A stretch of DNA of 64,000 nt, taken from contig CAXMPK010000029.1 in the NCBI GenBank assembly GCA_964195405.1, positions 33,229-97,228 on the forward strand. The letters are read 5' to 3'. Both the position numbers and the translations under genes were made by a program. The notes under the pieces were generated by a model. The model saw only the letters and a list, made by a program, of their open reading frames with translations. It had not been told where the DNA came from and did not search any database. Below are positions 5,552 through 46,911 of the stretch, one piece after another. Source of the DNA: an uncultured Acidimicrobiia bacterium. Lineage in GTDB: Bacteria > Actinomycetota > Acidimicrobiia > Spongiisociales > ZC4RG35. The number at the start of each line of letters is the position of its first letter. Within the stretch, counting starts at the first letter, position 1.

Positions 5552-7080
5552 CAGTTTTCGCCCTTTGCAACAAACACATCGCCGAGACGGCCCGGCTCTG
5601 GAACCTCATATCCAGTCGTCGCCTCGATGTGATCGAGCACCCTTTCGGTCGACGGTGCGATCTTGTCGAGCAGAACATTCGGATAGAGCCCGAGGACGAC
5701 AACCAGGATCGCCAACGGGGCGAGCAGGCCGATCTCGCGGGGGGACAAATCGGAGAGGATCTTGTTCTCCTCCTTTTCAGGGACCCCGGTGAAAACTCGC
5801 TCGTACGCCCACAACAGATAGATGGCCGCGAGGATCACACCGGAAGCTGCGATGACCGTCAGCACCGGGAGCGTCGTATAGCTGCCGATCAAAACCAAGA
5901 ACTCGCCGACGAACCCGTTGAGCCCGGGGAGTCCGATCGAGGCGAAGACCATGAAAAGGAAGAACCCGGCATAGATCGGCATCACCTTCTGGAGACCGCC
6001 GAACTCCGATATCTGCTTGGTGTGCCGGCGTTCATAGATCATTCCGACCAGGAGAAACAACGCACCGGTGGTGAGGCCGTGGTTGACGTTCTGGATGACT
6101 GCGCCTTGAAGGCCACCCGAGGTGAGCGCAAATGTTCCCAAGACGATGAACCCGAGGTGGGAAACAGACGAGTACGCGACCAGTTTCTTGAGGTCCGGCT
6201 GAACGACGGCGACCACAGCTCCGTAAACGATTCCGACTACGGCGAGAGTGCCCATGATCCAGACCGCGTCAACCGAGGCTTCGGGGAACAGGCCGAGGTT
6301 GTAGCGGAGCAAGCCATAGGTGCCGAGCTTGAGGAGAACTCCGGCCAGCAGCACGGAGCCGGCCGTAGGGGCTTCGGTGTGTGCATCGGGCAGCCAGGTG
6401 TGGAATGGGAACAATGGGACCTTGATGGCAAAGGCCAGGGCGAAGGCGGCGAACAGCCACCGTTCGTCACCTTGGGACAGCTCGAGACTCATCAGGTCGG
6501 CTAAAGAGAATGAAGGGCTGCCGTATTGGTCGGCATGAGTAAGCGCCAGAGCGATGATCCCGGCCAGCATCAACGCCGATCCGAACGCTGTGTAGAGGAA
6601 GAACTTCATGGCAGCGTATTTGCGACCGTCACTCCCCCAGATCCCGATGATGAAATACATGGGAACCAGGATCACCTCGAAGAACACGAAGAACAGGAAG
6701 AGGTCGGTGGCGAGAAATACGCCAATCATCCCGGCCTCGAGAAGCAGCGTGTTGGCAACGAATTCCTTGCGGCGGGTCTTGATTCCGGTAGAGGCTCCAA
6801 GGGCAATCGGCACCAGAAGGGTTGTCAGCAGGACCATCGGCATAGAAATCCCGTCAAGACCCAAGCTCCAGCTGATCCCCCATGGCTCGTACCAAACAGC
6901 GTTTTCGGTGAACTGGAACCCGGCGATTGGCTCGAACACGTAGAAGATGTAGGCAGCCAGCGCCAGGGGAAGTACCGAGAGTGTGATGCCAAGCGGCAGA
7001 TGGATCTCTTCACGTTTGCTTGGCACCATCACCACGACAATGGCGGCGACCACGGGAACGACGATCAGCCAGGTCAGCAT
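5551..7080 (-). CDS. nuoM: NADH-quinone oxidoreductase subunit M
   Basis: 509-aa antiporter-like subunit (FPFHTWLPDAHTEAPTAGSVLLAG motif), located between nuoL and nuoN. Confidence 0.92.
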   Translation of the reverse strand: MLTWLIVVPVVAAIVVVMVPSKREEIHLPLGITLSVLPLALAAYIFYVFEPIAGFQFTENAVWYEPWGISWSLGLDGISMPMVLLTTLLVPIALGASTGIKTRRKEFVANTLLLEAGMIGVFLATDLFLFFVFFEVILVPMYFIIGIWGSDGRKYAAMKFFLYTAFGSALMLAGIIALALTHADQYGSPSFSLADLMSLELSQGDERWLFAAFALAFAIKVPLFPFHTWLPDAHTEAPTAGSVLLAGVLLKLGTYGLLRYNLGLFPEASVDAVWIMGTLAVVGIVYGAVVAVVQPDLKKLVAYSSVSHLGFIVLGTFALTSGGLQGAVIQNVNHGLTTGALFLLVGMIYERRHTKQISEFGGLQKVMPIYAGFFLFMVFASIGLPGLNGFVGEFLVLIGSYTTLPVLTVIAASGVILAAIYLLWAYERVFTGVPEKEENKILSDLSPREIGLLAPLAILVVVLGLYPNVLLDKIAPSTERVLDHIEATTGYEVPEPGRLGDVFVAKGEN

Positions 7081-15376: not shown

Positions 15377-15996
15377 CCGCCACCCTCACTTCCAACGGTG
15401 CCCAGCGGTTGGAACGCCGGGTATGGGCCTATCGCACCGTCCTCCTCGCTGATGCCCCAGTCGAAGCTGCGGGGGCCGCCAAAAAGCTCTTGCATTTCGT
15501 CGGTGTTGACCACTTTTGGTCGAGCGGTCCGGAGCCACCTGACAAGCTCACGTGCCTTCTCCGGTGTCACGCCTTCGATCAACTCATAATTGACCTGGAC
15601 GGCCGGGGCGCCACCGCACGCACCGATGCATTCGACGTGTTCAACCGAAAGGAGGCCCTCGTCGTCTGTCTCTCCATGGGGCACACCGGACTCATCCTCC
15701 ACAGCCCCCAAAATGTCATCTCCCCCAAGAAGCATGCAGGAGATCGAGGTGCAGCAGGAGAGGAGGTATTCCCCGGTGGGCTCGCGTTTGTACATCGTGT
15801 AGAAACTGGCGACAGACCTGACCTGGGCGGGTGTGATCCCGCACCAGACCGCCACTTCAGCCATTCCATCATTGGTCAAATAGCCGTCTTCTGCCATAGC
15901 CAAATAGAGCAGGGGCATGACCGCAGATCTCTTCTCCGGGTATCGGGAGATGATTTCGCGGGCCCGTTCCTGGGTGGTCTCGGACCATAGACTCAT
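15373..15996 (-). CDS. nuoE: NADH-quinone oxidoreductase subunit E (2Fe-2S)
   Basis: From MSLWSETTQERAREIISRYPEKRSAVMPLLYLA. Cys ligands in CCTSISCM and CIGACGGAP. The upstream part of the 260-aa track ORF overlaps the preceding gene and is not used. Confidence 0.88.
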   Translation of the reverse strand: MSLWSETTQERAREIISRYPEKRSAVMPLLYLAMAEDGYLTNDGMAEVAVWCGITPAQVRSVASFYTMYKREPTGEYLLSCCTSISCMLLGGDDILGAVEDESGVPHGETDDEGLLSVEHVECIGACGGAPAVQVNYELIEGVTPEKARELVRWLRTARPKVVNTDEMQELFGGPRSFDWGISEEDGAIGPYPAFQPLGTVGSEGGG

Positions 15997-24812: not shown

Positions 24813-25433
24813 ATGGTCGCCGACATGAGCGGTCTCTCCCGAGCAACCGTCGCACGCCTCCCCCGATACCTGCGGCTTATTGAAGATGGCGAAAGCACCA
24901 ACGAGACAATCAGTTCCGAAGCGCTTGCTTCGGCTGCCGGGGTAAACGCTGCGAACGTCAGACGCGATCTCTCCGACCTAGGTTTTCAAGGGACCAGGGG
25001 CGTCGGGTACTCGGCCCCTGCCCTCAGGGACCGGATTCGACGCGAGCTCGGGATCGAGAATCGACGCAAGGTGGCGATTATCGGTGCCGGAAACTTGGGC
25101 ACTGCCCTCGCTCGCTACTCCGGGCTCAGTAAGCGTGGCTTTGATGTCGTAGCTATCTATGACATCGACATTGGGCGGATTGGACAACTAGTAGGCGAAG
25201 TCAAGATCCAGGATCTGGCTGAAATGCCGTCTGATTGCAGTTTCGGTTGTTTTGACATGGCGATCCTCGCGGTACCGGCAACCTCGGCACAGTCCGTCTG
25301 CCAAGAGCTTGTCAGCGCCGGAATCGCCTCCATCCTCAACTTCGCCCCGATCCGGGTGACCGTGCCAGAGAGCGTTGCGGTGAGACAGGTCGACCTCTCA
25401 ACCGAGCTCCAGATCCTCAGCTACTACGGATAA
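24813..25433 (+). CDS. rex: redox-sensing transcriptional repressor Rex
   Basis: ATVARLPRYLRLI winged-helix N-terminus, GVGYSAPALRDRI, and Rossmann IIGAGNLGTALA. 206 aa. Confidence 0.88.
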   Translation: MVADMSGLSRATVARLPRYLRLIEDGESTNETISSEALASAAGVNAANVRRDLSDLGFQGTRGVGYSAPALRDRIRRELGIENRRKVAIIGAGNLGTALARYSGLSKRGFDVVAIYDIDIGRIGQLVGEVKIQDLAEMPSDCSFGCFDMAILAVPATSAQSVCQELVSAGIASILNFAPIRVTVPESVAVRQVDLSTELQILSYYG

Positions 25434-25440
25434 TTTGCAG

Positions 25441-25489
25441 TGTTGCTATAGCAAGACGGTGCGGTTTTCGATCCGTTATGCACTCTCGA
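25441..25489. repeat. left arm of a 49-bp inverted repeat (47/49; 34-bp perfect core) flanking the DUF559 gene
   Basis: 25441-25474 gttgctatagcaagacggtgcggttttcgatccg is the exact reverse complement of 26472-26505. Pairing continues with 2 mismatches to 25489/26457. Contains the 12-bp palindrome ttgctatagcaa. Confidence 0.95.
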
Positions 25490-25493
25490 CAAG

Positions 25494-26471
25494 GTGGTTG
25501 AAGCGCTTCGCCAAATAGGGAAAGGTGGAGCCGTGGCAGACCAACGTGCGATAGAGAAGCTCGCCGCAAATCAACATGGTGTATTCAGTGCTACCCAAGT
25601 GAGAGAAGCCGGATTCAACCGTCACGCGGTTCAGAGAAAGCTGGCATCCTCGAGGTGGGTTCAACTCGACTACCGGGTGTTTGGGGTTGCGTCAGCACCG
25701 TCGACTTGGGAACGCCAGATGTGGGTTGCGATTCTCAGTAGACCCACGGCCTCGGTTGGAGGCCGTTCGGCCGCCTACATGCACGGACTGCGAGGGTTTG
25801 CACAAGGCCGTCCGGTGATCGTCGTGCCAGGCAGCTCCAACGCACGGTCAGAGGTCGCTCGGGTAATTCGTGCCGAGCATTATCCGGAGCTGAAAGCCGT
25901 CAATGTTGCTGGATTTCCAGTGACATCCGTCGCGGAGACAATCGTTTGCCTGGCGTCGGAACTAGGTCCCGGTCACCTGGAGTCAGTTTTCGACGACGCC
26001 CTGCTCGCCCACAAACTCGATCTCCATGATGTGGGTGCAATCCTCGAGCGCGAGATTGGACGGCGTCGCAGGGGCATCGTGCGAGTCAGAAACCTCTTCG
26101 AAGAGAAGGGTGAGGATGCCCCGACCCTGGATGCGAGCTACTTAGAAGGCATGCTCGAACAGCTCATCAATCGGGGTCCCCTGCCAGTCTGGGATAGGGA
26201 ACACCCTGTCCTCCTCTCCGGTCGACGATCCCGTGTCGACCTGTTCATCCCGGATTGGCAACTCGTGGTGGAAGTAGACGGGAGATCGTGGCATGCCCGG
26301 ACCGACGCATTCGAGTTGGACCGAGAGCGCGATAACCAACTCGCCTCCCGCGGCATCCAGGTCCTTCGCTTTACGTTCCGCATGCTCAAGGAGGATCCGG
26401 ACGCATGTTTTGAGATAATTCTGGCGACAGGCCACGCTCGCAGCGTCGAGGCGGGGGTCGAGCGTGCATAG
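25494..26471 (+). CDS. AbiEi-like HTH N-terminal domain / DUF559 (Vsr-like endonuclease fold) C-terminal domain protein
   Basis: N-terminus KLAANQHGVFSATQVREAGFNRHAVQRKLASSRWVQLDYRVFGV. C-terminus VDLFIPDWQLVVEVDGRSWHARTDAFELDRERDNQLASRGIQVLRFTF, typical of DUF559. Confidence 0.75.
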   Translation: MVEALRQIGKGGAVADQRAIEKLAANQHGVFSATQVREAGFNRHAVQRKLASSRWVQLDYRVFGVASAPSTWERQMWVAILSRPTASVGGRSAAYMHGLRGFAQGRPVIVVPGSSNARSEVARVIRAEHYPELKAVNVAGFPVTSVAETIVCLASELGPGHLESVFDDALLAHKLDLHDVGAILEREIGRRRRGIVRVRNLFEEKGEDAPTLDASYLEGMLEQLINRGPLPVWDREHPVLLSGRRSRVDLFIPDWQLVVEVDGRSWHARTDAFELDRERDNQLASRGIQVLRFTFRMLKEDPDACFEIILATGHARSVEAGVERA

Positions 26472-26505
26472 CGGATCGAAAACCGCACCGTCTTGCTATA
26501 GCAAC
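26457..26505. repeat. right arm of the 49-bp inverted repeat flanking the DUF559 gene
   Basis: Reverse complement of 25441-25489 (47/49). The inner 15 nt overlap the last codons and stop (26469-26471) of the DUF559 gene. Confidence 0.95.
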
Positions 26506-26518
26506 GCCACTGGGGGGG

Positions 26519-26884
26519 TTAGGTGACGGCCCCTTCTTGGGACTCTTCGAATTGGTGGAGAGCCACCAGGAAGACCAGAAAGAGAACAAGTGAAACCAGT
26601 AGATAGGTGATTGGGATCACCCTTATCTCGAGGGAGTTGAGACCTTCGATATTGTCGGGCTTCGGTCCGCGCGGCGCGTAGACCACAAAGAGCATCGACG
26701 TGATCGAGAGCCAACCGAAGACGGCAGCACCGGTTACCAAAAACCCAAGCTTCTTACCGAGGTTGGTGTAGCTGAAGAGATAGATCGACCCGAAGAACAA
26801 CAGCACTGCTGCGGCGAACAGCAGAACCCCGGTGACAAAGAGATTCGCCGAGAGAAGTGATCTGAAAAGCTCACGGAAGAACAT
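26519..26884 (-). CDS. small integral membrane protein (4 TM), last gene of the Rieske/cyt b operon
   Basis: 121 aa, hydrophobic. Start overlaps the cytochrome c stop by 14 nt. No family recognised. Confidence 0.55.
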   Translation of the reverse strand: MFFRELFRSLLSANLFVTGVLLFAAAVLLFFGSIYLFSYTNLGKKLGFLVTGAAVFGWLSITSMLFVVYAPRGPKPDNIEGLNSLEIRVIPITYLLVSLVLFLVFLVALHQFEESQEGAVT

Positions 26885-46852: not shown

Positions 46853-46854
46853 CA

Positions 46855-46898
46855 AGCGTGTGCAGCCATGGCCCTGTGAGGGCTTCGGCTGCACACGC
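46855..46898 (+). repeat. 44-nt nested-hairpin element, copy 1 (between the E1 stop and the argS start)
   Basis: agcgtgtgcagccatggccctgtgagggcttcggctgcacacgc. The outer 10-bp stem is gcgtgtgcag/ctgcacacgc and the inner stem is gccc/gggc. 39/44 identical to 61376-61419. Confidence 0.9.
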
Positions 46899-46911
46899 TT
46901 CTAGTGTTCCG

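Follow-up and report, generated by a model that had tools for sequence, protein, structure and literature searches.

An AbiEi-Vsr nuclease fusion gene between matching 49-bp units in an Acidimicrobiia bacterium: a possible site-bound, semi-mobile cassette

Introduction

Why should a single gene in the gap between rex and a cytochrome operon be bracketed precisely by two matching sequences of 49 nucleotides? This question is raised by a stretch of 64,000 nucleotides from an uncultured Acidimicrobiia bacterium (contig CAXMPK010000029.1; the whole stretch is called the window hereafter), in which a gene for a fusion of an AbiEi-type module with a Vsr/DUF559-type nuclease domain occupies, together with its flanking units, positions 25442 to 26505. 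An earlier reading of this DNA (the original prediction) had suggested a selfish cassette, with the repeats being either the terminal inverted repeats of a mobile element or paired operators for the protein's own helix-turn-helix domain. In the present analysis, the layout of a gene between matching repeats was seen again in relatives across Actinobacteria, and at a given spot the unit is present in some related genomes and absent, swapped or flipped in others; this suggests a self-contained and semi-mobile cassette of a kind not yet described. A rough probability of 0.42 is given to the reading that this 1,064-bp segment is a self-contained cassette, in which the protein's own binding units double as regulatory sites and as ends exchanged by recombination in a homing-like manner.

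The DUF559/AbiEi_4 proteins form a very large family which is present in multiple copies in actinobacterial genomes and has no assigned function. In the 25 papers examined that mention DUF559, no description of this bracketed arrangement was found. DUF559 proteins were reported by Milman et al., without comment, to be enriched among the predicted targets of programmed inversion (PMC9881135), and the cassette model may account for this enrichment.

The bracketed locus

The cassette occupies the gap between rex (24813-25433, forward strand), whose product contains the Put_DNA-bind_N and CoA_binding domains, and a gene for a 121-aa protein, p121 (26519-26884, reverse strand), which is the last gene of the cytochrome c/Rieske/cytochrome b operon and is convergent to the cassette. 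This placement had been recognized in the original prediction. The repeat search located the two arms at 25442-25490 and 26457-26505, each of 49 nt, with 47/49 (96%) complementary positions and a spacing of 966 nt; the perfect inverted core comprises 34 nt (25442-25475 and 26472-26505). Both the 34-bp core and its extension to 47/49 were thus as first described, as were the limits of the right arm, whereas the left arm had been placed one base off. A probe made of 33 nt of the core gave exactly two matches in the window against an expectation of 0.

The left unit, to which no strand is assigned, begins 8 nt past the stop codon of rex, and 7 nt lie between its end and the putative -35 hexamer. 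The right unit, likewise without a strand, mirrors the left one and ends 13 nt short of the convergent p121 stop codon; it covers the last five codons of the nuclease gene, and its perfect core begins at 26472, directly behind the TAG at 26469-26471, as had been noted earlier. Each unit carries at its outer side the perfect 12-bp palindrome TTGCTATAGCAA, the outer box (25443-25454 in the left unit; 26493-26504, with no strand, in the right unit). The palindrome had been assigned to both arms at the outset and is confined to these two places in the window (0.04 expected). It was also found in cassettes at other sites (L008, L009 and L011; such labels denote the loci compared) and in solo units, that is units without a gene, of L096 and L104. 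The arms of the window resemble the box-core-box unit seen in L096, in L104 and in the left arm of L125, with a decayed inner box.

A single arm of the window is not significantly stable as a hairpin (DNA folding z = -0.6 and -0.3 against shuffled sequences), and the strong pairing signal in the window is from arm to arm, not within an arm. In the flanks of the cassette (TTTGCAGT and GCCACTGGGGGGG) no target-site duplication is present, in agreement with the first inspection, and the content of guanine and cytosine (GC) of the cassette is like that of its flanks.

The encoded protein

The gene (25533-26471, forward strand) encodes a 312-aa fusion of an AbiEi module with a Vsr/DUF559 nuclease domain, as evidenced by profiles, homologues and a structural model. 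All database homologues and gene calls use the GTG at 25533, which is probably the true start as judged from these comparisons. The GTG at 25494, which had been taken to start the gene 4 nt past the left arm, is merely the mechanical start of the open reading frame; because translation would begin at 25533, the left arm ends 42 nt ahead of the start codon.

The two-part architecture proposed initially was borne out by several searches. The PADLOC models of AbiEi match residues 5-201 (E=1.4e-19), and the Pfam family DUF559 (PF04480) matches residues 248-311 with 28.2 bits against a cut-off of 20.6, while the matches to Pfam AbiEi_4 and MTES_1575 stay under their cut-offs. A profile search of the Protein Data Bank matched 3HRL to the C-terminus (E=2.6e-4), and no NCBIfam model matched the protein. 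The AlphaFold (AF2) model built from 25 homologues reached a mean predicted local distance difference test (pLDDT) value of 86.5. In Foldseek comparisons of this model, the N-terminal ~195 aa matched the two-domain AbiEi antitoxin 6Y8Q with probability 1.0, and the C-terminal ~100 aa matched the catalytic domain of I-Bth0305I (3R3P; template modelling (TM) score 0.79, root mean square deviation 2.9), the DUF559 structure 3HRL (TM score 0.72) and Vsr (1CW0, probability 0.98). The N-terminal part is accordingly modelled as a complete two-domain AbiEi module (winged helix plus C-terminal domain), and the C-terminal part as a Vsr/EDxHD-type PD-(D/E)XK nuclease domain. Asp236, Glu247, Asp249 and His254 are invariant across the 25 homologues and are the putative catalytic residues. 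The domain searches returned AbiEi and DUF559/MTES_1575 alone, and no transposase of the DDE, HUH, serine or tyrosine type was found in the protein.

The ratio of nonsynonymous to synonymous substitution rates (dN/dS) is 0.10 for the cassette gene against its 84%-identical orthologue in L006, which shows purifying selection; for the neighbouring genes rex, p121 and reductase it is 0.04-0.06. At 50% identity the family comprises 4,820 clusters (E<=1e-30), nearly all with proteins of ~305 aa.

Bracketing units across the family

To place the arms of the window in context, 80 homologous Acidimicrobiia loci were compared along with the window's own contigs and its close relatives. In most of the ~80 loci the repeat score from flank to flank was far over that of shifted-window controls, and among four distant homologues checked (28-30% identity) the bracket was present in two, one of them from Solirubrobacterales. 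The bracket is a family trait rather than a local oddity.

The sequence of the unit is specific to the locus, and at many loci it is a long palindrome in itself. Among 49 strong units, the half-site has a median of 21 bp and the whole unit a median of 47 bp (interquartile range 45-50). Upstream genes end 0-12 nt before a unit begins, and strong right units begin level with the cassette gene's stop codon (median -2). The two copies were direct in 30 of 81 loci, inverted in 20 (including the window), indistinguishable in 15 where the unit is palindromic, and weak in the remaining 16. Strong palindromes occur once per 2.1 kb beside cassettes and once per 53 kb elsewhere (18 in 963 kb), which is a ~25-fold enrichment next to family genes; few of the 18 outside cassettes are of the cassette-unit type. 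When all flank segments were compared by blast with ~1.3 Mb of locus sequence, almost only flanking coding sequence was returned, with no dispersal of the kind seen for repetitive extragenic palindromic (REP) elements.

Scored against each other, the units of one locus reach a median of 46-48, as compared to 17-22 for units at the corresponding position in other genomes that share the site, a pattern of concerted evolution. Between the window and L006 the left arms are 86% and the right arms 90% identical, with a proportion of synonymous differences (pS) of ~0.52, synonymous sites being near saturation, which points to constraint on the arms. In the left arm of L006, the middle 21 bp are flipped relative to the window, which in either alignment shows exchange between or within arms.

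Occupied, empty and replaced alleles at the rex junction

A metagenome scan with Rex yielded 32 further junctions. The junction is occupied in the window and in L005, L006, L007, L087 and L125-L127, and empty in L088-L090 and ~20 more distant relatives, so that the comparison of the rex/cytochrome operon junction proposed at first did reveal empty sites. In L088-L090 only 17-46 nt separate the stop codons. The flanking-protein tree places the empty L088-L090 inside a clade with the occupied window, L005 and L006, and the occupied L007 outside it. The original prediction would have been undermined by a repeat that is unique to the locus together with a gene that is fixed in all relatives; the repeat is indeed unique within the window, but the gene is not fixed. 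An excision scar or half-target was also sought in the empty sites, and it was rejected: GCAAC occurs in L089 and L090, a 5-mer which is not significant in 46 nt, and L088 has nothing.

Three allele types are present at the junction. The cassette proteins of different types share 56-62% of their residues, as against 82-94% for Rex, p121 and the reductase. Although the flanks of L125 and of L006 are at the same distance from those of the window (~90-94% identity), the cassette protein of the window is 61% identical to that of L125 and 84% identical to that of L006. At the nucleotide level, the window and L125 agree at 80-90% of positions through the left outer box, at 50-60% between the boxes and at 80-88% from the right outer box onwards. 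The outer boxes are the same in all three allele types, and in this alignment the divergence of the alleles is bounded exactly by the two TTGCTATAGCAA boxes. All seven distinct loci at the rex site share one orientation of the cassette.

L127 and L003 both come from the Logan sample ERR13301385, in which the window-type allele of the rex site is accompanied by a P0004-type allele that is 61% identical to it, and two allele types hence coexist in one community. The Logan contigs L003 and L004 correspond to positions 25446-26501 of the window (1,056 bp) and end inside both arms. They were considered as evidence of flipping or of multiple copies and were rejected as such, since a 34-nt perfect inverted repeat breaks an assembly graph of k=31 at this place. 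Many other members of the family are also found on contigs of 1.0-1.1 kb, for which perfect repeats longer than k=31 are the simplest cause.

The same junction was found with a different insert in L099 (2738-6098), where 3.3 kb encode a 1,085-aa protein with an N-terminal zinc-ribbon-like motif, a nucleotide-cyclase-like region and a long ATPase/repeat region. The rex/p121 junction looks like a hot spot for insertions. The rex-p121 gaps of L091, L112, L115, L097, L105 and L103 hold unrelated families of intergenic inverted repeats, for example GGTATGAGGTATCAGG.../...CCTGATACTTGATACCTC and the shared ACTTCGCTGAGCG...GGGAACCCTGGGTTCG.

Promoter and transcript

The putative promoter of the window cassette (25498-25526, forward strand) consists of a -35 hexamer TTGAAG at 25498-25503, a 17-nt spacer and a -10 hexamer AAAGGT at 25521-25526, which is followed after 6 nt by the GTG at 25533. 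It conforms to a start-anchored geometry of the whole family, TTGnnn-N16-19-nAnnnT-N4-9-start, which is present in 49 of 80 loci including the window; shuffled sequences gave 0.8 +/- 0.9 loci and shifted anchors 0-1. A conserved ACAAGGGGG is found upstream of this geometry. A simple sigma-70 consensus scan did not flag the promoter of the window. As read from the sequence, the geometry implies a leaderless transcript starting at the GTG at 25533, from a promoter located just inside the left unit. Because the putative promoter sits between the left arm and the gene, the left arm would lie outside the transcript, and a messenger RNA panhandle formed by the two arms was ruled out on this ground.

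At the RNA level, the terminator scan and the search for T-runs around the cassette found nothing relevant, and Rfam at permissive thresholds returned nothing for 25300-26700. The mispairs within the palindromes are neutral with respect to strand (29 G.T versus 35 A.C), with no excess of pairs compatible with G.U on the sense strand.

In a distant clade (L061, L062, L066, L070, L073, L075, L076 and L082), the TTG-type promoter is replaced by TGTCAC-N10-nAnnnT-N6-8-ATG. This is the geometry of promoters of PafBC, the regulator of the RecA-independent DNA-damage response, tGTCgg(N10)tA(N3)T, and it was seen in eight loci against 0.03 expected. The TGTCAC-type promoters lie ~20-40 nt 5' of the gene start, which falls near position 6000 in most of these loci.

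Other sites, inversion and solo units

Loci of the family cluster by their shared flanks into a few conserved sites, among them one with 24 loci, one with 9 loci and the rex site, and the protein tree largely tracks the genomic site. Paralogues of one genome are located at different sites, carry different unit types and are highly diverged, as seen for L125, L010 and L056 in one metagenome-assembled genome. The segment from unit to unit is inverted between L064/L084 and L077/L083, on contigs of 130-590 kb, and the switch points fall within the 48-bp units.

Solo units without a gene are found in L096, L104 and L027, in L102 and in the window itself at 46854-46900; solo units fold with z of -7 to -8, unlike the arms of the window. 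The units of L096 (2933-2985) and L104 (63-117) are of the box-hairpin-box kind (GTTGCTATAGCAA - short hairpin - TGCTATAGCAAC) and are placed at other gene junctions. In L096 the stop codon of an aminotransferase gene falls within the box, and the stem shows compensatory changes in comparison to the right arm of L008. The solo unit of the window is a near-perfect palindrome of 47 nt (AAGCGTGTGCAGCC...GGCTGCACACGCTT; DNA folding z = -7.1) that begins 2 nt past the stop codon of a gene for a fused E1 dehydrogenase; 11 nt separate its end from the start of argS, and no DUF559 gene adjoins it. It belongs to the GCGTGTGCAG...CTGCACACGC class, as do the units that bracket 24 cassettes elsewhere at a site designated site 0. 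It does not represent an empty site 0, a possibility that was considered and dropped, as site 0 lies between a response regulator gene and a Cys/Met-metabolism gene.

Discussion

The cassette reading may be put in the form of a mechanism, the steps of which differ in their probability. The gene would have a promoter of its own and yield a leaderless messenger RNA, and the palindrome TTGCTATAGCAA would be the invariant part of a recognition unit of ~49 bp. By analogy with AbiEi and Rv2827c, which bind inverted-repeat operators of 49-59 bp, the AbiEi module would bind both flanking units, and such binding of the protein to its units is probable. The left unit, abutting the -35 hexamer, would then serve in autoregulation and as a shield against read-through out of rex, and the right unit, starting at the stop codon, would act as an insulator for the convergent cytochrome operon. 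Both units would also be the ends of the segment that is gained, lost, replaced or flipped at a fixed intergenic site; for this role as recombination ends the chances are slightly below even. Positioned at the units in this way, the nuclease domain would introduce nicks or cuts and so promote recombination; such nuclease-stimulated exchange is a doubtful step. The outcome would be a spread that resembles homing, with alleles exchanged among related genomes, and not transposition. In this sense the idea of a selfish cassette is retained as a description of behaviour, with presence and absence, three alleles, boundaries at the boxes and an inversion elsewhere; as a transposing element it is not.

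Several observations weigh against a homing-like cassette and should be set beside those above. The empty sites of L088-L090 contain no box or unit, so that a classical homing target is not evident in them, and neither putative site is disrupted in the occupied allele. The alleles of the rex junction (site A) form a single clade, orientation is conserved at the three best-sampled sites, and only one inversion event was seen in ~80 loci. The synonymous divergence (dS) between the window and L006 is equal for the cassette gene and its neighbours. Taken together, the unit-free empty sites, the undisrupted occupied allele, the site-A clade, the equal dS and the conserved orientation are compatible with a long vertical residence. 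The family is essentially absent from mobile replicons, with one partial match in the viral contigs of IMG/VR and none in the plasmids of PLSDB. With regard to the units, the left one is upstream of the -35 hexamer and not over the promoter, unlike the operators of AbiEi and Rv2827c, and the half-site symmetry within each arm of the window is weak (13/23), so that a reading as 23+3+23 is loose here.

The main rival reading takes the gene as an ordinary resident of the host, such as one for a repair or defence nuclease, that is autoregulated through paired sites. The units would then be operators or insulators and nothing more, the patchy occupancy would result from loss, the divergence from fast or diversifying evolution, and no mobility would be involved. 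The few conserved sites, the constant orientation and the protein tree that tracks the site all agree with it, as do the monophyly of the rex-site alleles, the dS equal to that of the neighbours, the dN/dS of 0.10, the GC content matched to the flanks and the absence of the family from phages and plasmids. The PafBC-type DNA-damage promoter of the distant clade is what would be expected of a host repair gene. On the other hand, a host gene does not account well for L125 and L006, which at equal flank distance carry cassette proteins of 61% and 84% identity and are thus not clock-like, nor for the sharp boundary of divergence at the boxes. The nested empty sites would need several clean, scarless deletions, and operators alone leave unexplained the matching downstream unit that is kept in most loci. 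A resident host gene is on this balance rather unlikely, though it has to be taken seriously. The suggestion of paired operators made in the original prediction is part of this rival and of the cassette reading alike, and among the earlier suggestions it has gained most, from the AbiEi module and from units of operator-like size and symmetry; the left unit, which does not cover the promoter, speaks against it.

The remaining explanations each fail their defining tests. If the units were RNA-level elements, namely terminators, hairpins that stabilize the messenger RNA or a 49-bp processing stem formed by the paired arms, their placement relative to stop codons, 0-12 nt past the upstream one and level with that of the cassette gene, would be understood, and so would the high stability of many of them as hairpins. 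But there is no T-run, terminator call or Rfam match, the mispairs (29 versus 35) show no G.U-compatible excess on the sense strand, the leaderless promoter excludes a panhandle of the 5' and 3' ends, and the arms of the window do not fold significantly alone. Terminators, moreover, need not match or co-vary within a locus, and RNA-level functions are improbable as an explanation. A programmed invertible segment, whose flipping would switch the expression of the gene or antisense transcription into the neighbours, is suggested by the 34-bp perfect inverted repeat of the window, by the inversion that distinguishes L064/L084 from L077/L083 and has its breakpoints within units, and by the enrichment of DUF559 proteins among predicted programmed-inversion targets (PMC9881135). 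This is a slightly poorer candidate still: the copies form direct pairs at 30 loci and inverted ones at 20, neither a serine nor a tyrosine recombinase is found in or beside the cassette, and the seven distinct rex-site loci have a single orientation, both orientations being seen only between genomes and at another site. The promoter lies within the segment alongside the gene, so a flip would alter nothing obvious, and the 1,056-bp Logan contigs ending in the arms are the expected effect of assembly at k=31. Least probable of all, and hardly to be credited, is a transposon or insertion sequence with the arms as terminal inverted repeats and the DUF559 protein as the transposase. The precise bracketing by 49-bp inverted repeats and the several paralogous copies per genome had made it attractive, and the rex-site clade nests beside alleles of another site, which implies that the module of unit, gene and unit has moved as a whole at least once in the distant past. 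Against it stand the lack of a target-site duplication, an arm that occurs only twice in 64 kb with arm-like sequence rare off cassettes in ~1 Mb, and paralogues that are diverged, each with different units and with no identical copies. Direct-repeat flanks are common, hence the ends are not inverted repeats throughout the family, and the hydrolytic PD-(D/E)XK-type nuclease has no known strand-transfer domain. The earlier proposal of terminal inverted repeats of a mobile element was therefore abandoned in view of the 30 direct and 20 inverted pairs, the fixed sites and the absence of duplication, transposase and identical copies.

Comparison with known systems

AbiEi monomers bind two 23-bp inverted repeats located 3 bp apart (49 bp in all) in their own promoter, and Rv2827c binds pairs of such repeats 13 bp apart (PMC7319586). 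With these type IV AbiE antitoxin-autorepressors (COG5340), the cassette protein shares the two-domain fold, matched by profile and by structure, and the cassette units have the size and symmetry of their operators (medians of 21 bp for the half-site and 47 bp in total). Unlike AbiE, the annotated flanks contain no AbiEii/DUF1814 toxin gene, the neighbours being rex and respiratory genes. Unlike AbiEi, the cassette protein has a nuclease domain fused to its C-terminus, and two matching sites are present, one on each side of the gene, of which the upstream one is outside the promoter core and not over it.

I-Bth0305I is a multidomain homodimer with a footprint of ~60 bp and a pseudopalindromic core (PMC3239194). 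Like this and other EDxHD homing endonucleases, the cassette protein carries a Vsr-like nuclease domain C-terminal to DNA-binding domains, and like homing endonuclease genes the cassette shows a site-specific, patchy occupancy. Its N-terminal module is AbiEi-like, unlike that of I-Bth0305I. In further contrast to homing endonuclease genes, the cassette gene is free-standing in an intergenic gap and not in an intron or intein, its putative recognition sequences flank it intact instead of being split, the empty sites lack them, and the family was not found on phage contigs.

RAYT genes, as is reportedly set out by Nunvar in 2010 and by Bertels and Rainey in 2011, are flanked by cognate REP palindromes. 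These systems have in common with the cassette a single gene between two co-varying cognate palindromes, elements specific to the paralogue and solo elements. Unlike RAYT proteins, the cassette protein contains no Y1/HUH transposase, and its palindromes are not of high copy number, with ~1 per 53 kb off cassettes. The Hin/Gin invertible segments are likewise ~1 kb long, bounded by inverted repeats and contain the gene of a DNA-binding protein, and one inversion with breakpoints in the repeats was seen here; unlike them, no serine invertase is present, direct repeats are common and no outside gene is obviously switched. Integron attC cassettes resemble the present one in being compact single-gene units with imperfect palindromes, in which the sequence varies and the symmetry is kept, and further similarity is seen in conserved ends containing GTT...AAC at the exchange boundary. 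The cargo here, unlike that of integrons, is always the same gene family with its own promoter, single and not arrayed, both of its sites match, and no integrase was seen in the cassette flanks that were read.

The combination of an AbiEi-type regulator with a Vsr-fold site-specific nuclease as a bracketed cassette is a new variation on known parts, with a modest chance of belonging to a new class of selfish element. More broadly, the AbiEi-Vsr fusions of Actinomycetota might be the engines of undescribed site-bound selfish cassettes that carry their own recognition palindrome on both sides and use it for self-regulation, while its cutting or nicking by the nuclease would drive gain, replacement, inversion and loss at fixed intergenic sites through recombination, a generalization that we consider unlikely and put forward as speculation. 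Mobility of this kind would differ from transposition, from classical homing and from the recombination of integrons. The model is specific in that it predicts defined DNA ligands, catalytic residues, and empty as well as occupied alleles. Should the nuclease indeed act on the palindromes at either side of its gene, genes would have a new means of persistence and movement, and a source of long-site nucleases that are programmable by evolution would be at hand.

Further observations

Two other features were noted which lie away from the cassettes. Perfect palindromes of 39-51 nt (GGGGACAAAAACGACCGC...GCGGTCGTTTTTGTCCCC) are repeated in L052 (9103-9141) and in L054 (7404-7454 and 10749-10793). 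In the window, positions 15580-15639 (forward strand) encode 20 aa that weakly match the cassette protein at its catalytic ExDGxxH stretch (55% identity, E=0.008) and may belong to another nuclease-domain gene or to a remnant of one.

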